Source: Promineifilum sp. | GTDB taxonomy: Bacteria > Chloroflexota > Anaerolineae > Promineifilales > Promineifilaceae | Assembly (NCBI GenBank): GCA_035446145.1 | Contig: DAOMSB010000005.1 | Span: 13,879 to 77,878 of the forward strand | DNA length: 64,000 nucleotides | Reading direction: 5' to 3' | Shown: piece by piece, positions 15,874 through 31,645 of the stretch | Layout: each line of letters starts with the position of its first letter | How positions within the stretch are numbered: the first letter of the stretch is position 1 | Notes under the pieces: generated by a model | Database searches by the model: none | Seen by the model: only the letters and a program-made list of their open reading frames with translations | What the model was told of the DNA's origin: nothing | Position numbers and translations under genes: made by a program

Positions 15874-16509
15874 GTGAAAAACATCGTTCCCCTCAGCGGC
15901 TATTATTTGTGTAACCGGCTTGGCCGCGTGTATATCGACTCGTTGGAAGAGACGATCGGCCGCAACGGGAAAAATGCCTTGCTGAACCTGACCGGGTGCG
16001 GCGCGTTTATTGATACCCCGCCATCCGATGATTTGGCGTTGGGCTTCGATATGGCTGTGGTCTCCAACCTTAATCGGGCCATGGAAGTTATCTATGGGCC
16101 ACGGGGTGCTCGGGGGCTGGCCTTGCGCAGTGGCCGGGCCATGTACGATCGCCTTGCCGACGCTTTTGATATTCCGATTGGATTTAATGAGCTGGCCTTC
16201 CGTCTGTTGCCGTTGCAGACTCGCCTCAAGATTGGTGTGCCTGCGCTGGCGCGGGTCTTCACCCAACACAGCGACCAGACCCATCGCGTGGCCGACCACG
16301 GAACCTATTTCGACTACATTGTAGAGCGTTGCGCGGTTTGTTGGGGGCAGGAAACCAAAACGCCATTATGCCATTTGATCGTGGGTTTGCTCCAGGAAGC
16401 GTTGAGCGCGTTTAGCCGTGGACAGGAGTTCCGCGTGACACAGACCGAATGTCGGGCGGTTGGCGCGGCGGCGTGCGTCTTCCGCATCGAAAAAGAACCC
16501 ATTGTATGA
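15874..16509 (+). CDS. V4R (4-vinyl reductase) domain protein
   Basis: YIDSLEETIGRNG, YGPRGARGLALRSGRA, CAVCWG..PLCH..G.LQE, ECRAVGAAACVF; GTG start uncertain. Confidence 0.8.
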   Translation: MKNIVPLSGYYLCNRLGRVYIDSLEETIGRNGKNALLNLTGCGAFIDTPPSDDLALGFDMAVVSNLNRAMEVIYGPRGARGLALRSGRAMYDRLADAFDIPIGFNELAFRLLPLQTRLKIGVPALARVFTQHSDQTHRVADHGTYFDYIVERCAVCWGQETKTPLCHLIVGLLQEALSAFSRGQEFRVTQTECRAVGAAACVFRIEKEPIV

Positions 16510-19500
16510 TCCGTGATCGCCTTCGCGCCCTCCGGCCGGACATCGCCATCGCTCTGGCTTATCTGATCCTGCCGTTGCTTCTTTATGCGGGAGTCACGAT
16601 TGGCCCGCGAACGATGCTCCCGGCCGATAATCTGTTTCAATGGCCCCCCTGGCGCGAGGCCGCGGCCGAATTTGACGCGACGATTCCCCACAATGCGCTC
16701 ATCGGCGATCTCATCATCCAGAATTACGCCTGGAAGCGATTTGTGCTGACGAGCCTCAAAGGGGGCGAGATACCCCTATGGAACCCTTATTTGTTTGCCG
16801 GAGCGCCTTTTCTGGCCAATGGCCAACACGCTGCGCTCTACCCGTTCAGCCTGTTGTTTCTCGTTATTCCACTGGCCAAGGCCTATGGCTGGTTTGCGTT
16901 GAGTCAGGTATGGCTGGCGGGCATCAGCATGTATCTGTTCAGCCGAATCCTCGGTCTGCGGCGAGGAAGCGCGGCGCTGGCGGGCTTTGTCTATCAAGGC
17001 GCGCAGTTCCTGATCATCAGCGCGGCCGTCTTCCCAATGATCGCCGCGGCCGTGGTTTGGCTGCCGCTTCTGTTAGGCTGTATTGAGCGGGTCATTACCA
17101 CACTCTTCGGCTTGTCGGAACGCCATCATCGCGTCGTGTTATGGGCGGCCGCGGGTAGCATCGCTCTGGGATGTCAGATTCTTGCCGGGCATGCCGAGTT
17201 CACCTATTACACCCTGCTCGTCATGGGTCTATACGCTTTGTGGCGTGTGGGAACGCAAGCCTGGATCGCCCGTGATGAATCGCGAGTGGCGAACCGGGAG
17301 TCGGGCGTAGCCACGTCCGATATCTCGCTTGTCGTCCGGCGCTCGTCCCTGGCTTTTCTCTGGCTCGCCGCCATGGTCGGCACGGGCCTGCTCATTGGCG
17401 CGATCCAGCTAGTGCCGCTGTTTGAAGTAGGGCGGATTAATTTTCGGGCCGGTTCCGCGTCATTCGAAGAGGTACGGAGTTGGGCCTACCCGCCGCGCAA
17501 CGCCATCACATTTCTGCTGCCCGATTTCTTCGGCAATCCGACCGATCACGCCGTCCGCGATCCTTTCTCCGGCGAGCTGGTTCCGCTTGAACGGAACTCC
17601 TTCGGCGAGCTAAATCCCTACGGCGCATTTACGACGAGTTGGGGGACGAAGAACTACGTTGAGGGGGCGGCCTACATGGGCATCCTGCCTTTGCTGCTGG
17701 CAGGCCTGGGTGTTTGGGCGCTGTTTCGCCGGCGCGGACTCTCAGCACTCCAGCGCGCGCGGATGTGGTTTTTTGCCGGGCTGTCGTTTTTTTCTCTGGC
17801 TTTTATCTTTGGCACACCTCTCTACGCTCTGCTTTTCTATGGGTTGCCATTCATCAATCAACTCCATACACCCTTTCGGTGGGTTTTTCCGCTGGCGCTG
17901 TCGGTGTCGGTGTTGGCCGGTTTTGGCGCGGAGCGTTTGCCAGGGGCCGAGATAAGCGCAGGGGAGCAGGGGATCAGGGGAGCAGGGGAATCTGCCCGTT
18001 CCGAATGGCGATCGCAATGGCGCCCACAGGGGTTTGCTTTGGTTCCGTTGTTATTAGGTGGCGCTGTCCTGATCGGAACTATGGCGAGTTGGCTGTTCCA
18101 TGATGCGTTTCGGCCGCTAATCGAGCGGTTGTTCCTGGGGTTGGCCGGCGCGACTTATGCTTTCCCGTCGGCCGAAATCTTCTACGGATACCTGTTTTGG
18201 CAATTGCTGGCGTTTGGGGGGCTGCTCCTGGCGTCGGGGGTTGTCCTTCTTTTGGCGCGCCGCACGCGCTATTGGATTGTCGCGGCTTGCGGGTTAATCG
18301 TTCTGGACCTTTTTTTCGCCAGTCTGGGATTCAACGCCGCCACCGATCCGGCGCTGCTGGATTACACGCCGGCCGCTGTCCGTTGGCTCAAGGAGCAGCC
18401 CGGCGAATGGCGGCTGACGACCTATGATACGATTGGGGCGGGCACACTCAACGCCAACACTCCCTGGCACCACGATCTGATGGACATTCGCGGCTACGAT
18501 TCCATCATCCCCAAACAATACACCGATTACATGGTCGCCATTGAGCCGCAAAACGGGCTTCAGTTCAATCGCATTCAGCCTCTTGGCTCCCCGACGGCCG
18601 TCGAGTCGCCCTTGCTGGACGCGCTGGCTGTGAAGTACATCGTTTCGGCCGAGACATTGGACTTGCCCAAGCTCCGGCCGGTGTGGGCGGGCGAGGGCGT
18701 GACTATCTACGAAAATCTGGCCGTCGTGCCGCGCGCCTTTGCGCTGCCCGCCACGGCTGAAGTCCACGTCCCCGACGCTCTGGATTCCCTATCACAATAC
18801 GATCCGCGCTACTATGTTGTGGTGGAGTCGGACACGCCTCTCCCAGCTGCGGCCGAGCCTGGCGTCCCCCTGCCGGCGTCGATCGCCAACGCGTCGAACA
18901 ATGAAATCATCGCGACAGTTCAGGTCGCCGAGCCGTCGTGGCTGATCCTGAGCGACTCCTATTTCTCCGGTTGGCGCGCCTACGTGCGGCCGGCCGGCGC
19001 GGCCGACGATGCCGAAAGCGAAGTGGAGATCGTCCGGGTGAACGCCAATTTCCGCGGCGTGCGGCTGGAACCGGGCGAGTGGACGGTTCGTTATCGCTAC
19101 AGCCCGCGCAGCTTCCAGCTTGGTGGCCTTATGTCGTTCATGGGCGGCATCCTGATTCTGTTCGCCGCCGGCGTATGGGGATGGCGTCGTTTCTATCGCC
19201 CTGAATCGACCACTTCAACGACGCGCAGCGTCGCCAAGAACAGCGCCGCGCCGATGGTTTTGAACCTGTTTAACAAGGCCATTGACTTCGTGTTCGCGGC
19301 GTTTTACCTGCGCTTGCTTGGCCCGGCCGACGCAGGCAGCTTTGCCACGGCCATAGCGACGGCCGGCATCTTCGAGATCGTGGCCAACTATGGCCTCAAT
19401 ATCCTGCTTATTCGCGATGTCTCTCAGGATCGCAGTCTGGCCGGCCGCTTCCTGCTGAATTCCAGTGTGCTGCGGATATTCACGGCTCTGATCGGTGCGC

Positions 19501-20690
19501 TGCCGATCGCAGCCTATATGTTCGTCGCGTCACAGGGGACGAACCCGCTCTCCTCGGCCGAGACCACCGCCATCATTTTCATGATGATCGGCATGGTGCT
19601 CTCCGGCATGGCGCTGGGCGTTTCCGGTCTGTTCTACGTCTATGAAGAGGCCGAGGTGCCCGCGGCGATGTCGACCGTGACGACGATTCTGAAGGTTGGG
19701 TTGGGAGTGGTTGTGCTGTTGGCCGGATACAGTTTCGTGGGGCTGGCCGGGGTGTCGATCGTCGTTAATCTGATCACGCTGGTTTTGTTGGCCATCCTGG
19801 CGGCGCGGCGATTTGATCTCCACGGTCCATGGACACTTGACGGCACAATGATCCGCGGAATGGTGCGGCTCGGCTTCCCGCTGATGTTGATCCATCTCCT
19901 GCAAACGATCTTCATCTCCATCGACGTCTTGTTGCTCAGACAACTGTTGCCGGATGGTGAGAAGGTCGTCGGCTGGTACAACGTCGCCTGGAAATGGTTC
20001 AACGCGCTACAGATCATCCCGTCCTACTTCACCTTGGCTTTGTTCCCCATCGTTTCGCGGGCGATCAAGGAGAATATGGAGTCGGCGCGGCGCATGTACC
20101 GGATGTCGCTCAAGCTCATGCTGTTGCTGGCCTTACCGATTGCTGCGCTGACGACATTCGCCGCGCCCGCACTGGTCGGCTTGCTCGGCGGCTCGGAGTT
20201 CCTGCCTCAGGGCGCGGTAGCCCTGCAAGTCGTCATCTGGTCGATCCCGTTTGGCTGGCTCAATAGCGTCACCAATTATGTGCTGATCGCCCTGGGCATG
20301 GAGCGCGTGCAGCCGCGGGCATTCGCAATCGCCGTCGGGTTTAACGTCGTGTTCAATTGGCTGCTCATCCCTCGCTATAGCTTTGTCGCTGCCGGCATCA
20401 TCACCGTCCTGTCCGAGTTGGTCTTGCTGGCGATATTCGCCTACTTCCTGCGCCGGCGCGGCGCGGGAATCGATTGGCTCCGTCTCATCGCCCGTCCCGT
20501 GTTCCTGACCCTTGCCATGCTCGGTGTCATGTGGCTGGGCAATCAATTGCATTTGATCGCCGCGCTCGTGTTGGGCGTTGCGGTTTATGCGATCGGGCTG
20601 GTCGTATTGCATATCATTGAGCCAAGAGAACGCGAGGCCATCAAGGCGATATTGCCCGGTGCGCTCACTCGCCGGCTGGGGTGGGTTTGA
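16506..20690 (+). CDS. YfhO-family (GT-C-like) protein fused to a Wzx-type oligosaccharide flippase
   Basis: PLWNPYLFAGAPFLAN and LSDSYFSGW..NANFRGV.L.PG...V.YRY.P (YfhO), then VAKNS..LFNK..YLRLLGP..G and VGWYNVA (flippase); ATGA overlap with the V4R stop. Confidence 0.8.
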   Translation: MIRDRLRALRPDIAIALAYLILPLLLYAGVTIGPRTMLPADNLFQWPPWREAAAEFDATIPHNALIGDLIIQNYAWKRFVLTSLKGGEIPLWNPYLFAGAPFLANGQHAALYPFSLLFLVIPLAKAYGWFALSQVWLAGISMYLFSRILGLRRGSAALAGFVYQGAQFLIISAAVFPMIAAAVVWLPLLLGCIERVITTLFGLSERHHRVVLWAAAGSIALGCQILAGHAEFTYYTLLVMGLYALWRVGTQAWIARDESRVANRESGVATSDISLVVRRSSLAFLWLAAMVGTGLLIGAIQLVPLFEVGRINFRAGSASFEEVRSWAYPPRNAITFLLPDFFGNPTDHAVRDPFSGELVPLERNSFGELNPYGAFTTSWGTKNYVEGAAYMGILPLLLAGLGVWALFRRRGLSALQRARMWFFAGLSFFSLAFIFGTPLYALLFYGLPFINQLHTPFRWVFPLALSVSVLAGFGAERLPGAEISAGEQGIRGAGESARSEWRSQWRPQGFALVPLLLGGAVLIGTMASWLFHDAFRPLIERLFLGLAGATYAFPSAEIFYGYLFWQLLAFGGLLLASGVVLLLARRTRYWIVAACGLIVLDLFFASLGFNAATDPALLDYTPAAVRWLKEQPGEWRLTTYDTIGAGTLNANTPWHHDLMDIRGYDSIIPKQYTDYMVAIEPQNGLQFNRIQPLGSPTAVESPLLDALAVKYIVSAETLDLPKLRPVWAGEGVTIYENLAVVPRAFALPATAEVHVPDALDSLSQYDPRYYVVVESDTPLPAAAEPGVPLPASIANASNNEIIATVQVAEPSWLILSDSYFSGWRAYVRPAGAADDAESEVEIVRVNANFRGVRLEPGEWTVRYRYSPRSFQLGGLMSFMGGILILFAAGVWGWRRFYRPESTTSTTRSVAKNSAAPMVLNLFNKAIDFVFAAFYLRLLGPADAGSFATAIATAGIFEIVANYGLNILLIRDVSQDRSLAGRFLLNSSVLRIFTALIGALPIAAYMFVASQGTNPLSSAETTAIIFMMIGMVLSGMALGVSGLFYVYEEAEVPAAMSTVTTILKVGLGVVVLLAGYSFVGLAGVSIVVNLITLVLLAILAARRFDLHGPWTLDGTMIRGMVRLGFPLMLIHLLQTIFISIDVLLLRQLLPDGEKVVGWYNVAWKWFNALQIIPSYFTLALFPIVSRAIKENMESARRMYRMSLKLMLLLALPIAALTTFAAPALVGLLGGSEFLPQGAVALQVVIWSIPFGWLNSVTNYVLIALGMERVQPRAFAIAVGFNVVFNWLLIPRYSFVAAGIITVLSELVLLAIFAYFLRRRGAGIDWLRLIARPVFLTLAMLGVMWLGNQLHLIAALVLGVAVYAIGLVVLHIIEPREREAIKAILPGALTRRLGWV

Positions 20691-20692
20691 CG

Positions 20693-22702
20693 ATGCGCCA
20701 CAGCCAGTCTGGTGAGCAATTAACCGTCGAGCATTCTGCGGGATATGCGCCTGAACGATTGGCGTTGGTTCTCATGGTGGCCATCCTGCTTGCCGCCGCC
20801 GCTTTTAGATTTATTGGCCTCGATAATTTTCCTACTCCACAAGGCGCGACGCCCCCGGGCCTGGAACATGATGAGGTCGCCCACTGGCTGATCAATCAGG
20901 ACATTCTGGCCGGGCAGCACGCGATCTACTTCACCGAGGCCTACGGCCACGAAGCGCTCTATCATTACGTGCAGGCGGCTTTCGGGGCGATGGTCGGCGA
21001 TCATGCGCTGGCCCTGCGTCTGCCGTCGGCCTATTTCGGCATCCTGTTGGTGGCTGTTGCCTATGCGCTTGGGCGCCGGCTGTTCGGCGTACGTGTGGCG
21101 TTGTGGTCGGCCGCATTCCTGGCGGTGCTTTTCTGGCCAGTGTTCTATAGCCGCCTGGCGTTGCGGGCCATCTCACTGCCGGTATTTTCCGGTTTGGCGG
21201 CTTATTGGTGGTGGCGGGCCTTCCCCATTGGCGCAGAGCCTGACAATGATCCAGAGAGCAATGATAGAACGGCCGCAACAAGCTTGGGTATGGCCGGTTT
21301 GTTTGCCGGATTGAGCATCCACACCTACATGGCGGCGCGGGCCGTGCCGATATTCTTCGCTCTATATTCCTTTTATTTGCTCGTATGGCATCGACCTATT
21401 TTCCGCCGTCATTGGCGCGGGCTGGCCTTGTTCTGGCTAACGTTTATTGTGGTCGCTGCGCCCCTGGCTATTTTTCTGCTGTCGAATCCCGGCGCAGAGG
21501 TACGCGTCGCTGAAGTTGACGCGCCACTGCGAGCGTTTTTGTCGGGAGATTTTCGGCCGGTGCTGGAGAACGCGGCCCGCATCGTGGGCATGTTTGGCGT
21601 CAAGGGCGATCCGCTTTGGCGACAGAACGTCGCCGGGCGACCGGTCTTTGACCCCGTCATGGGGCTTCTTTTCTATGCCGGCGTCGCACTCAGTCTTTGG
21701 CGGTGGCGTGACCCGCGCCATGCCTTCATGTTATTATGGCTGGCGACGTCGGTGATCCCCAGCCTGGTCACCGTCGACGCGCCCAGCAACATCCGCATTA
21801 TTAACCTGCTACCGGTTTTGATGCTGTTTCCACTCGTATTTATCCACAACACCCTCCAATTATCCACAATACGGGAAAAGTTATCCACAGATTTAGCCAC
21901 AAGCCTGGCGAATACAAGACTTGTAACCGTGGGGTTAGGCTTCTTGCTTGTCTGGTCGGCATGGAGCACGTACTCCGATCTGTGGCGCGTGTGGCCGGCG
22001 AATGATGAGGTGCGTTTTGTATGGCAGGCCGCCCTCACCGAGGCGGCCGCGTATCTGGATCATAGCGATGAGTCGGGGGCGGTAGCTGTCGGCGGTTGGA
22101 CGCCGGAGACGATGGATCCGCCGACGATGGCGCTAAGTCTGCGGCGCGACGACCTGGCGCTGCGCTACTTCGATCCGACGCAAAGCCTCATTATCCCCGC
22201 TTCGGCTGACGATCAGCCCATTCGCATAGTGAAACCGAGTATCTTGCCACTGGCCACACCTCTTCAGGGCTTGGTGAAACCGTGGGAAGAAGTCCACGGC
22301 GAATTCACTCTCTACAGAATGCCCGACCAACCGGCCGTCGAACCGCGGATTGCGGCCGACGTCGATTTTGGTGGGCAACTTGTCTTCATGGGTAACGAAG
22401 TGGTGGCGGGATGCGAACCCGGAACTCCGTGCGAGATAATGACCTACTGGCGTGTCATTGCTCCATCCAAAGAACCGCTGCGATTCTTTCTTCACGCGGT
22501 GGATGCGGCAGGGCAGGTGGTGGCGCAAGATGATCGTCTCGGAGCGCCGGCCGAGTATTGGCGAGAGGGAGATCTCATCGTGCAGCTTCTCGCGTTGGAC
22601 GCCACGGCCGCGGAACTTCGGTTAGGTGTCTACAACCCCCTCACCCGTCAACGCCTTCTAACCCGGACGGGGGCCGATTATATAGCCCTGCCTGGAAATT
22701 AA
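20693..22702 (+). CDS. Glycosyltransferase family 39 (ArnT/PMT-like, GT-C) membrane protein
   Basis: PPGLEHDE, GHEALYHY, ALRLPSA, FWPVFYSR, many TM segments, C-terminal periplasmic domain (RFFLH..Q.D..W..GD). Confidence 0.8.
   Translation: MRHSQSGEQLTVEHSAGYAPERLALVLMVAILLAAAAFRFIGLDNFPTPQGATPPGLEHDEVAHWLINQDILAGQHAIYFTEAYGHEALYHYVQAAFGAMVGDHALALRLPSAYFGILLVAVAYALGRRLFGVRVALWSAAFLAVLFWPVFYSRLALRAISLPVFSGLAAYWWWRAFPIGAEPDNDPESNDRTAATSLGMAGLFAGLSIHTYMAARAVPIFFALYSFYLLVWHRPIFRRHWRGLALFWLTFIVVAAPLAIFLLSNPGAEVRVAEVDAPLRAFLSGDFRPVLENAARIVGMFGVKGDPLWRQNVAGRPVFDPVMGLLFYAGVALSLWRWRDPRHAFMLLWLATSVIPSLVTVDAPSNIRIINLLPVLMLFPLVFIHNTLQLSTIREKLSTDLATSLANTRLVTVGLGFLLVWSAWSTYSDLWRVWPANDEVRFVWQAALTEAAAYLDHSDESGAVAVGGWTPETMDPPTMALSLRRDDLALRYFDPTQSLIIPASADDQPIRIVKPSILPLATPLQGLVKPWEEVHGEFTLYRMPDQPAVEPRIAADVDFGGQLVFMGNEVVAGCEPGTPCEIMTYWRVIAPSKEPLRFFLHAVDAAGQVVAQDDRLGAPAEYWREGDLIVQLLALDATAAELRLGVYNPLTRQRLLTRTGADYIALPGN
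21840..21901 (+). promoter_or_regulatory. Cluster of DnaA boxes inside the GT39 coding sequence
   Basis: TTATCCACA at 21840, 21860 and 21881; TTAGCCACA at 21893; all in the same orientation. Confidence 0.8.
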
Positions 22703-22727
22703 CCGGCGAGGCGGAATGGGCTTGTGG

Positions 22728-24029
22728 TTATGGCGTTACGCGATGGAGATCGCGCGGGAAAAGGGTCGCCAGCCGCAGGTTGGGCAAACCCAGCAGCTGC
22801 ATCAAGAGACGCTCCAGGCCGATGGCGAAGCCGCCGTGGGGAGGCATGCCATAGCGAAAAGCTTCGAGGTAAGTTTCGAATGGCTCATGGGGATAACCGG
22901 CCCGGTCGAGCGCGGCCAGATAGTCCTGGTAACGGTGCAAGCGCTGACCGCCGGTCACCAGCTCAGTCCCGCGAAACAGCAGGTCGAAGGAGTTGGAATA
23001 ATCCGGTCGCGTCGGGTCAGGGTGGGTGTAGAACGGCCGCTTGACCATTGGATAGCCGGTCACAAACAGGAAGTCGCTGCCATGTGTCTCTAACGCCCAT
23101 TCGCCCAACCAGCGCTCGTCCTGTGGCGACAGATCAGGCTCACCGCGCACATCGACCCCATGACGACTCAGGATTAGCTCCTGGGCATCGGCAAAGTGGA
23201 TGTGGGGTATCTCCGGCAGAATGATGGGCAGGTTGGCTTCAAGCAAGGCCAAATCATCCGGATAGTTGTCGATCAGATAGGTGAAGATGCCGGCGATCAC
23301 CTCGCGGAGCAGGCGCATCACCGTGAAATGATTTTCGATGAAGCCGAACTCGACATCCAGGCTGACGTATTCGTTGATGTGACGAACGGTATCATGAGGT
23401 TCGGCGCGGAAGACCGGGCCGACTTCGAACACGCGCTCGAAGACGCCGACCATGATCTGCTTGTAGAACTGGGGACTTTGGGCCAGATAAGCGGGGCGGC
23501 CGAAGTAATCCAGCCTGAACACGTTGGCTCCGCTCTCTGTGGCCGAGGCGACGATTTTGGGCGTCTGCACTTCGGTGAAGTACATGGCCCCCAGCGTCGC
23601 GCGAAACCCGGCCATAACGCCGGATGACAGCCTGAATATGGCCCGTCGCGCCGGGTGACGATTGGCGACGACGGCGTGATCGAGCAGTGTGGGCAGGGCG
23701 GCGTTCAGCCGGCGTTTGTTGAGCGGCAGCGGTGGCGTTTCAGTTACCGGTGTTATGACTTCGATCCGCGGCCGTTGCAGTTCGAGGCCATTAGGTGCCT
23801 GCGCATTGGCAATGGCCAACCCTTCAAGGCGGATGACCGTTCCCAGAGCGAGATCGGCGATAGGTGCAAGGTCCGCATCATCTTCAGTGACGGCCTGGAT
23901 GGTTCCCCAGCCGTCGCGCAGGACGATGAAATTGACGCCGCCCAACCGGCGGACGTTATGGAGCCAGCCTTTGAGTTGGACAGCTTCACCGATGTGGTTC
24001 TTTGCTTCAATCGTGCGGATCTCGGTCAT
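22728..24029 (-). CDS. aspS: Aspartate--tRNA(Asp/Asn) ligase, short archaeal-like (probably non-discriminating) type
   Basis: ESGANVF, AYLAQSPQFYKQ, FRAEPH, TGGQRLH, YGMPPHGGFAIGLER; lacks the bacterial GAD insertion; start MTEIR. Confidence 0.88.
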   Translation of the reverse strand: MTEIRTIEAKNHIGEAVQLKGWLHNVRRLGGVNFIVLRDGWGTIQAVTEDDADLAPIADLALGTVIRLEGLAIANAQAPNGLELQRPRIEVITPVTETPPLPLNKRRLNAALPTLLDHAVVANRHPARRAIFRLSSGVMAGFRATLGAMYFTEVQTPKIVASATESGANVFRLDYFGRPAYLAQSPQFYKQIMVGVFERVFEVGPVFRAEPHDTVRHINEYVSLDVEFGFIENHFTVMRLLREVIAGIFTYLIDNYPDDLALLEANLPIILPEIPHIHFADAQELILSRHGVDVRGEPDLSPQDERWLGEWALETHGSDFLFVTGYPMVKRPFYTHPDPTRPDYSNSFDLLFRGTELVTGGQRLHRYQDYLAALDRAGYPHEPFETYLEAFRYGMPPHGGFAIGLERLLMQLLGLPNLRLATLFPRDLHRVTP

Positions 24030-30193: not shown

Positions 30194-31645
30194 ATGGACC
30201 CGATGCGATTGCTCGATATCCTGGATGCTCATCTTTCCGAAGCGGAAATGAGCGCGCTGTGCCGCCAGTTTGGGGTGGCATTTGGCGCGTTTCCGGGCGG
30301 TGCAAAGCGAGACAAGATGCGGGAATTCCTCGGGTTTATCCAGCGACAGGGACGCATGGGTGGGCTGACCGAAGCAACGATTGCCTTGCGCCCCGATCTG
30401 ACAGAAGCCATTGCCGGGCTGTACGAGGGCAAAGAGCAGGAACTCTCCTGGCTCGATCAGGTTGCCGGTGGCATTGGACAATCGCTTGATTCGGGGCTGA
30501 CGTGGCGATGGACGACGTCTTCAACCGGCCGTCAGGTTGCCGTCGGTTCATCATCAGCTGCCGATGAGGAAACCACTCCTGACGTGGTCTTGGCGGTGGA
30601 AGATTCGTCGCCATCTCGTGACGTCGACAATCCTTATACACCCGGCGCGCGTGTGATCGACGAAGCTATGTTCTTTGGCCGCGAGGTAGAGACGGAGCAG
30701 GTCAGTCGTCTGCTTGAGGACAGCCGCCATGTCGCGATCATCGGCCATCGCGGCTTTGGGGCCTCCTCGCTTCTCTATCACGTTTCGCATGCGCTTGGCG
30801 ATCGAGACAAGACCCTCGTTGCCTATGTCGATATGAAGGACGCCGTCAACCACACTCCGGCAAGCCTTCTCAATGCGATCTGGCTGCAATGGTGGGAGCG
30901 CGTGCGGCCGGGCAACAGTGTGCCTGTGCGCAACCTGGCCGAATTCGTGACGGCTGTCCGCAAGCTGAACGCCGCCGGATTCCATCCCGTGTTGTTTGTG
31001 GATGAGCTTGAGCAGTTGGCATGGCGGTCGGCGAGCTTCGATGACGGCTTCTTTGCCGCCTGGCACGAGTTGGGGCGCGAGGGGTTGGTACAATTCGTAG
31101 TCGCTGCCCACTCCACCCCGGCCGACATCCTGGCTCAGGCGGATTTGAAATCCTCCTTTTATGAGCTTTTCCAATCGGTGAACCTGGGATTGCTGGATGA
31201 ATCGGCCGCTCTTTCTCTGTTGGCGATCCCCATCCGGCGCGCCGGGATGAGCGTACCCGATGGTGCGGCGGAGTACCTCTACCTCCATGCGGGGCCGCAC
31301 CCCTTCTTCCTGCATCTGGCCGGTCTCTATCTCTTCGATGCGATAGCCGGTGGAAATTATTCGCGTGGGGAGGTGGTTCGGCAATTTGAGATCGCCGCTG
31401 AGCCGTTCTGGCAAGAGTTGTGGGACTCTATCTCGCCTCTGGCCCAATCCCATTATCCCACTACCTTGATACGGGTGTCTGACGGCATGGGCGGCCGGCA
31501 AATGCGCATACTGGCCAATCGTGGTTTGGTGGTGGTGGAAGAGGGCGGGTTCCGACCATTTAGCGATGGATTCGCGCGTTGGTTGGCGCGCATGCAGGCC
31601 GCTATCGAAGCGGCCGCGGTGGTGGCCGACGCCATACCGCTCTGA
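30194..31645 (+). CDS. Effector-associated-domain-like N-terminus plus STAND-like P-loop domain with degenerate Walker A
   Basis: N-terminal helical ..EMSALCRQFGV.F..FPG..K.DKMRE......RQGR...L......RPD; NPYTPG..FFGRE; GHRGFGASS; LFVDELE; AGPHPFFL. Confidence 0.65.
   Translation: MDPMRLLDILDAHLSEAEMSALCRQFGVAFGAFPGGAKRDKMREFLGFIQRQGRMGGLTEATIALRPDLTEAIAGLYEGKEQELSWLDQVAGGIGQSLDSGLTWRWTTSSTGRQVAVGSSSAADEETTPDVVLAVEDSSPSRDVDNPYTPGARVIDEAMFFGREVETEQVSRLLEDSRHVAIIGHRGFGASSLLYHVSHALGDRDKTLVAYVDMKDAVNHTPASLLNAIWLQWWERVRPGNSVPVRNLAEFVTAVRKLNAAGFHPVLFVDELEQLAWRSASFDDGFFAAWHELGREGLVQFVVAAHSTPADILAQADLKSSFYELFQSVNLGLLDESAALSLLAIPIRRAGMSVPDGAAEYLYLHAGPHPFFLHLAGLYLFDAIAGGNYSRGEVVRQFEIAAEPFWQELWDSISPLAQSHYPTTLIRVSDGMGGRQMRILANRGLVVVEEGGFRPFSDGFARWLARMQAAIEAAAVVADAIPL

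Follow-up and report, generated by a model that had tools for sequence, protein, structure and literature searches.

A predicted dual-coding triple DnaA-box module within a membrane glycosyltransferase gene of the Promineifilaceae

Analyses of a 64,000-nucleotide stretch of a Promineifilum sp. genome (contig DAOMSB010000005.1; hereafter, the window) and of related genomes indicated that a glycosyltransferase gene carries a real, Promineifilaceae-wide module of three DnaA boxes that appears to be dual-coding. Codon conservation indicated that the array is selected as DNA, and its spacing matches that of a module at the predicted replication origins of the family. We consider there to be about an even chance that the gene copy is a decoy that binds DnaA without unwinding DNA and so restrains initiation.

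Three perfect copies of the box TTATCCACA were identified on the plus strand of the window, at positions 21840-21848 (box 1), 21860-21868 (box 2) and 21881-21889 (box 3), followed by a co-oriented one-mismatch copy (box 4, 21893-21901, plus strand), all as the initial annotation had described. The three perfect boxes, which are also the only ones in the window, as had been claimed, form a module (21840-21889, plus strand) with box starts 20 and 21 nt apart. The gaps between these strong, co-oriented boxes are 11-12 nt, and a slot for a weaker intermediate box (21871-21879, no strand assigned) holds a poor match in the window genome. The array reads FIHNTLQLSTIREKLSTDLAT in the open reading frame at 20681-22702 (plus strand), and the frame does stay open there with three TTA leucine codons, a codon making up only 6.5% of the leucine codons in the gene. 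Boxes 2 and 3 fall on codons L394-S395-T396 and L401-S402-T403, respectively, and box 1 lies in a shifted frame (F-I-H-N).

The DnaA-box consensus is TTWTNCACA. The same consensus is employed in PMC12371093. The window contained 15 DnaA boxes with ≤1 mismatch, versus a mean of 6.84 and a maximum of 13 in shuffled sequence. Single perfect boxes were not enriched in the assembly as a whole (3.46 Mb, 86% complete), which had 12 versus the 9-19 expected from Markov models. Three of these 12 lie within the 50 nt of the array, for which simple arithmetic gave a chance probability near 1e-8, and the array is the only cluster in the assembly of at least three boxes (≤1 mismatch) per 100 nt. A promoter/terminator scan of 21300-22800 returned two promoter-like matches versus 0.6 expected, one of them across the boxes on the minus strand, which we did not count as evidence.

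The host gene (20681-22702, plus strand; its true start is possibly a few codons downstream of 20681) encodes a 673-residue protein that, judged by its modelled multi-helix membrane fold, is a glycosyltransferase of the GT-C superfamily. The protein matched the Pfam family PMT_2 (E 2e-6), and a Foldseek search with its AlphaFold model (mean pLDDT 80) returned STT3, AglB and ArnT (E 3e-8 to 5e-7, TM about 0.4). The array encodes residues 387-403, which the model places at a helix end and in a low-confidence loop (pLDDT <50 at residues 394-396 and 398-403) ahead of the last membrane helix. Across 35 Promineifilaceae sequences, in-frame insertions occur immediately on either side of the array (up to about 27 residues ahead of it, about 25 behind it), and none occurs within it. 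A helix end and a loop that also accepts insertions would tolerate the residues imposed by the boxes.

Directly upstream, at 16449-20690, is a gene for a 1413-residue membrane protein that ends in a polysaccharide flippase domain and whose 900 N-terminal residues are without assignment; it is kept in the Promineifilaceae and in a sister family. In one sister-family genome (G039) this upstream gene abuts aspS, with no such glycosyltransferase gene between them. The window also holds, at 30194-31645, a gene with EAD7 and a novel STAND NTPase, typical of conflict systems.

Orthologues of the host gene were present in 35 of 37 Promineifilaceae genomes (the window genome and 36 others), and the triple was found in all 35 with identical spacing, ≤3 mismatches and in the gene's own reading frame. 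In each the array lay within an open frame of at least 511 codons; the breaks seen in G018 and G020 were elsewhere in the gene. Box 2 was perfect in 28 of the 35 orthologues and box 3 in 29, while box 4 had ≤1 mismatch in only four, so that of the four-box array originally claimed the triple is conserved and the fourth box is not. The two other genomes lacked both array and orthologue, through either gap or loss: the upstream neighbour reaches the contig end in G034, and it was not found in G014. In a set that overlaps these orthologues, the loci of protein relatives, the triple was present in 32 of 34, and the other two loci end before the array.

The relatives of the host protein were labelled Promineifilum or Ca. 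Promineifilaceae (class Anaerolineae), and close DNA copies of the gene came mostly from sludge and wastewater runs. Two loci titled as other phyla (L288 and L289; Patescibacteria group and Zixiibacteriota) carry the gene, the array and Promineifilaceae neighbours, and are probably mislabelled bins. The array travels with the gene and not with a chromosomal site, as the neighbouring genes differ in G036. In that genome the array-bearing gene (L198:8941-13594) is 1.6 kb from dnaN, which was not so in four other genomes checked.

The triple was absent from both sister-family orthologues (11-12 mismatches) and from the three paralogues examined. In a quick tree search the sister-family orthologues were placed as sister to the Promineifilaceae clade (support 98 and 100); since they are without boxes, the family probably acquired the array on its stem lineage.

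The codons of the boxes proved far more constant than the gene around them. Between genera the orthologues share 39-61% protein identity and 36% of fourfold sites are identical. At their six L/S/T codons, boxes 2 and 3 nevertheless showed a top-codon share of 0.91-1.00, versus a median of 0.55 in 137 other conserved columns, three of which reach 0.85. When each of 14 genera was represented by one genome, the shares were 0.83-1.00 at the box codons versus 0.50 elsewhere. Changes among the orthologues appeared to track the box consensus and not the protein. Base 5 of box 1 was free, as the N of TTWTNCACA permits; base 3 of box 3 changed leucine to phenylalanine in four genomes and gave the synonymous TTG in none; and box 1 was kept in its shifted frame while encoding 17 different tetrapeptides. 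In four public DNA runs all seven variant positions within 21840-21889 were in the spacers, with none in the 27 box bases. The alignment thus bore out the claim, made when the array was first noticed, that the DNA motif dictates the codons, with boxes in every orthologue and synonymous variation suppressed at their codons. These data show the array to be real and under selection as DNA, and they strongly support its dual coding.

The slot between boxes 2 and 3 frequently held a weaker box. A co-oriented weak box was present there in 10 of 14 genera (background 2.5%), and in 10 of 22 members of the genus an inverted weak box stood back to back with box 3 (background 0.6%).

The DnaA proteins of the family (five sequences) retained the canonical motif of the helix that, by the residue roles we assume for it, reads the box. 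Table S1 of PMC8287927 lists AATAGGTGT as the standard box of the Chloroflexi, a database motif and not the outcome of a binding test, and assigns a non-canonical standard box to Anaerolinea, Caldilinea and Dehalococcoides. This listing counts against a canonical-box reading. The elements predicted in that source differ in kind from the canonical-box elements described here, and both are predictions for the Promineifilaceae.

Searches for HU/IHF (PF00216) gave no match in five of five Promineifilaceae genomes (G000, G001, G002, G011 and G035; four of them 98-100% complete), with a positive control in 9 of 14. The absence of a detectable HU/IHF gene from five genomes is unusual for bacteria. 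No YabA gene was found in the five genomes, and a general search of the DnaA family gave no clear Hda. Because neither HU/IHF nor YabA was found, there would be room for DNA-based control. That general search also brought up a conserved open frame, about 480-535 codons long, in which two DnaA-like ATPase matches stand in tandem (G002:C1:1818495-1819478, with matches in G001, G011, G016 and G035), possibly a helicase loader or a regulator of DnaA.

The predicted oriC of the window genome, which is set apart from dnaA, is an intergenic locus on contig C93 (1135-1572; L061). On the minus strand this locus has tandem boxes, a short GC spacer, CTA repeats and an A-rich run, an architecture that matches the basal unwinding system (BUS) of PMC8287927 and PMC6669920. 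It is flanked by an SH3-domain gene and by an XRE/IrrE-type regulator adjoining malate synthase and isocitrate lyase. The SH3-gene flank recurs at the corresponding loci of most genus members, and many of them have a one-base phase slip in the CTA repeats after two trios. An unwinding-element profile trained without C93 (25 training rows, including two misaligned rows with negative leave-one-out scores that were left in) ranked C93 first in the genome with a score of 48.8, the next being 11.9. A related unwinding pattern was matched in 35 of 61 relatives, mostly once, although a few matches were chance-like.

Support from GC skew was mixed. The skew of G036 changes sign, from negative to positive, no more than a few hundred kb away from the predicted origin. 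The sampled skew minimum of G002 is near 1.87-1.89 Mb, about 0.36 Mb from the unwinding element, and the erratic skew of G027 peaks near both the array and the predicted origin and is uninformative. We therefore base the prediction more on architecture and on the place of the locus downstream of dnaA in several other genera than on skew.

The gene array itself is very probably not oriC. The initial annotation had proposed a cryptic oriC element, which we rejected because there was no skew switch or unwinding element at the array and a full origin-type locus was present on C93. The GC skew on contig C5 is positive on both sides of the array (0.032 left, 0.053 right), and no switch was evident at the array in G002 or in G036, where the skew there is positive. 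Within 1.5 kb of the gene arrays at all orthologous loci the unwinding profile scored ≤12.0, indicating no trio element and agreeing with the original remark that no clear AT-rich unwinding element or trio run could be seen. The lowest 30-nt GC content was 0.40 in the array flanks versus 0.27 at C93. A loose three-trio rule, which the array of the window genome fails, was left unused, as it did not separate arrays from origins as coded: 14 of 35 gene arrays passed, about half of them because the match extended into the following box, and many predicted origins gave only two in-phase trios owing to the one-base slip. Each well-assembled relative examined had a separate, complete origin-type locus, at distances from the array of 41 kb (G027), about 0.5 Mb or more, and up to 1.38 Mb (G002).

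A RecF/SMC-family gene and rsmG do lie about 16 kb from the array, as had been pointed out. The origin linkage drawn from them was rejected, however, and their proximity weighs little, since in relatives dnaA, dnaN and the predicted origin lie at scattered positions. The reported lack of dnaA in the window extends to the entire, 86%-complete assembly. A box cluster belonging to dnaA, as had been suggested for comparison, was not seen in relatives: the 600 nt upstream of dnaA held at most one one-mismatch box at each of the 12 loci resolved of 20 given, so nothing points to the array being a dnaA promoter cluster that has been displaced.

Some genomes had unusual arrangements of these loci. In G002 dnaA is on the 1.0-Mb contig C2 (L067, G002:C2:660000-679999; also L091), while the unwinding element, both triple modules and dnaN are on the 3.99-Mb contig C1; C2 has skew switches of its own, and dnaA may sit on a secondary replicon. 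In G051 (L116, L084) a triple stays just downstream of dnaA and the best unwinding element is on another contig. G036 has four perfect boxes in a different arrangement around the start of a methyltransferase-like gene (L062:7127-7308), about 0.32 Mb from the predicted origin.

The 20+21 spacing of the gene array recurs at origin-type loci. At C93, a degenerate triple with the same spacing (1512-1561) lies on the opposite strand, about 250-280 nt from the unwinding element. The triple pattern was found in 47 of 61 relatives, in 130 of 251 genomes of the class Anaerolineae and in 22 of 107 from other classes of the phylum, usually once in each, and the reversed-pattern control had none among the matches listed. 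When spacing was left free, 41 of 79 triples spanned 50 nt and 17 spanned 51. Thirty triple loci from the class-wide search, none of which had been used to train the profile, were scored at a cut-off of 15. Eighteen were accompanied, at 170-291 nt, by an unwinding element on the opposite strand, and 12 were below the cut-off, one of these with a weaker element.

Several of the triples found in this way are noted in their own right. Three without an unwinding element (L241, L243 and L127, each at 1501-1550) are right at the ends of membrane-protein genes, the one in L127 beside a PMT-family gene, and L243 weakly matches the C-terminal part of the host protein (E 6e-6); a recurring link between triples and GT-C genes is possible, although GT-C genes are numerous. 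In L245-L248, from another family, an intergenic triple is directly downstream of an apparent metG with no unwinding element within 600 nt. Five contigs (G087:C6, G272:C101, G255:C392, G288:C9 and G231:C21) have two triples separated by about 2 kb, which hints at a bipartite origin with a gene between its halves.

The usual state in the Promineifilaceae is two triples, the predicted origin and the gene having one each. Since the gene triple has the spacing of the origin module, which elsewhere lies opposite the unwinding element, the gene appears to hold a second copy of the distal DnaA module of the predicted origin, which may have arisen either by capture of origin DNA or by convergence. Of 23 genomes, 19 had a gene copy closer to 3xTTATCCACA than their origin copy (in three of these the origin had no clear triple at 20+21 spacing), and the two copies were tied in the other four.

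Based on the gene copy being the stronger of the two and having no trios, it should bind DnaA without unwinding DNA and would then act as a sink, the reading that we hold to be about as probable as its negation. DnaA would bind the three in-phase boxes, which at two helical turns apart would present it on one face of the helix, with weaker sites between, and would form the same oligomer as at the origin. In B. subtilis, the distal box group of the origin raises local DnaA and shows helical phasing (PMC6669920). As the better match, the gene copy would fill first and raise the level of DnaA needed to fire the origin. We speculate that RNA polymerase or the replication fork, in crossing the gene, strips DnaA and resets the sink. 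The fuller proposal, that replication across the family is controlled by a better-than-origin mimic, written in glycosyltransferase codons without an unwinding part and reset by transcription, in cells for which searches gave no IHF/HU, YabA or clear Hda, is rather unlikely.

The size of the sink counts against titration, as three to five boxes are few when, of about 200 DnaA monomers per origin in E. coli, a comparable region titrates about eight (PMC5835720). In addition, E. coli datA and DARS keep fixed chromosomal positions (PMC4585315) and strong Bacillus clusters are mostly near oriC (PMC2533591); the distance from array to origin is not conserved here, which weakens dosage-timed models. 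The fixed place and orientation of the array in one gene would fit a gene-regulatory role equally well. The first proposal of a DnaA titration or reactivation site held up as to a non-origin DnaA site, given the 35/35 conservation and the codon constraint, with the sequence compatible with titration and reactivation alike.

An unlikely alternative to the decoy is that DnaA bound in mid-gene serves as a transcription roadblock or attenuator, tying the output of the glycosyltransferase, and with it surface glycosylation, to the replication cycle. The array keeps the same place and orientation in one gene in all 35 orthologues and moves with that gene when its neighbours change; DnaA roadblocks in transcribed regions of E. 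coli have been described (PMC11317965), and DnaA at datA attenuates read-through transcription (PMC10950094). Dual coding alone would already lock place and orientation, however, and a roadblock has no obvious need for the 20+21 spacing of the origin module. The ChIP-seq of PMC11317965 also missed the guaB site reported earlier. Four RNA-labelled runs were contigs with flat cover that may contain DNA, and they showed neither expression nor a roadblock.

We regard as distinctly unlikely that the module switches the nucleotide state of DnaA without an accessory protein, through ADP release of the DARS1 kind or ATP hydrolysis of the datA kind. The core of DARS1 is three boxes (PMC4585315), the inverted weak box that 10 of 22 genus members carry back to back with box 3 would suit such a module, and with no clear Hda, YabA or IHF found some other control would be expected. 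The box pairs of E. coli DARS and datA are, however, 3 nt apart (PMC11317965, Table 1) and not 11-12, and the orientation of the intermediate box differs by genus, whereas DARS activity requires correctly oriented boxes (PMC5835720). Moreover, datA and DARS2 require IHF (PMC4585315), for which no gene was found in the five genomes, making an IHF-dependent mechanism of either kind unlikely.

A role in a working origin, either as an additional or reserve origin whose unwinding element is unusual or as a distal loading site that loops to the element, seems improbable. No other DnaA-box cluster in the assembly is as good as the array, whose geometry is that of the distal module; a distal box in B. 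subtilis acts through a loop from up to 462 bp (PMC6669920), the array of G027 is 41 kb from the predicted origin, and a survey detected no trios in 15% of origins (PMC8287927). Against this are the lack of a skew switch at the array, its trio-free, less AT-rich flanks and the separate origin-type locus in each well-assembled relative, as far as 1.38 Mb away.

It is more improbable still that the module anchors chromosome organization or segregation through DnaA bridging, or that some other protein binds it in place of DnaA. Element-free triples do occur in other families, mostly intergenic (12 of 30 loci), and the chromosome architecture may be unusual where HU/IHF was not found, but even the degenerate positions of the motif agree with the DnaA consensus, it accompanies trios at origins, and its chromosomal position is not conserved. 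A reading with no DNA function (chance, protein-level selection for L-S-T motifs or a decaying relic) is hardly credible and, provided that the alignment is correct, is refuted by the codon test, for although the orthologues are related and hence not independent, rare codons stay fixed despite saturated divergence, box 1 persists in a different frame across 17 tetrapeptides and the sister orthologues manage without the L-S-T peptide.

Our search of the literature, which was mostly open-access and barely covered supplements, found no description of this intragenic module. The non-origin DnaA control sites in the literature covered are non-coding, and searches for such sites are usually intergenic. 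A family-wide site that dictates protein residues would mean that DnaA control sites can hide in coding DNA, where codon constraint makes them findable. Direct evidence for initiator titration is recent and comes from E. coli (PMC12371093), and the paired copies, a strong one without trios and a weaker one with them, would offer a clean natural test of it. The data also provide a concrete predicted origin plan, with a canonical box, for the Anaerolineae, common sludge bacteria for which a published table used another motif (PMC8287927). If the mimic reading is true, replication timing would be coupled to the expression of a surface-glycosylation gene.

Compared with known systems, the predicted Anaerolineae origin is like the B. 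subtilis incC/BUS, with tandem boxes, trios and a distal group a few hundred nt off (PMC6669920, PMC8287927), and the gene copy would correspond to that distal group, the loading part of the plan without the unwinding part. Of the features of a BUS-type oriC the array has the box cluster, and trios followed by AT-rich DNA and a skew switch were not found there. The single intragenic DnaA-bound region of E. coli, in dnaN, has no double box, and no role is assigned to it in PMC11317965.

Like E. coli DARS1 and DARS2, the array has three DnaA boxes at its core (PMC4585315, PMC5835720), but DARS are in promoter regions and have closely spaced boxes (PMC11317965, Table 1), with IHF and Fis required by DARS2, whereas the boxes here are co-oriented with gaps of 11-12 nt. 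Like E. coli datA, it is a non-origin box locus crossed by transcription (PMC4585315, PMC5835720, PMC10950094), although titration is a prediction here; unlike datA, which in these sources is non-coding with an IHF site at a set spacing and a constant distance from oriC, the array is in coding sequence, in a family where HU/IHF was not found, and its distance from the predicted origin ranges from 41 kb (G027) to 1.38 Mb (G002).

The array shows what marks a non-origin cluster, i.e., dense near-consensus boxes, kept in relatives, outside the predicted oriC. In this it is like the B. subtilis clusters outside oriC, which are conserved groups of high-affinity-type boxes off the unwinding site, some of them given without a target gene in PMC2533591. 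It differs from the eight B. subtilis sites (intergenic, four to eight boxes, mostly near oriC; PMC2533591) in being inside a coding sequence, and from the Bacillus clusters in having the fixed 20+21 spacing of the origin's module and no fixed distance from the origin. Because the array departs from the Bacillus clusters and datA in their intergenic, IHF and positional features, we have not classed it as datA or DARS, and by analogy it most resembles a Bacillus non-origin cluster or the titrating side of datA.
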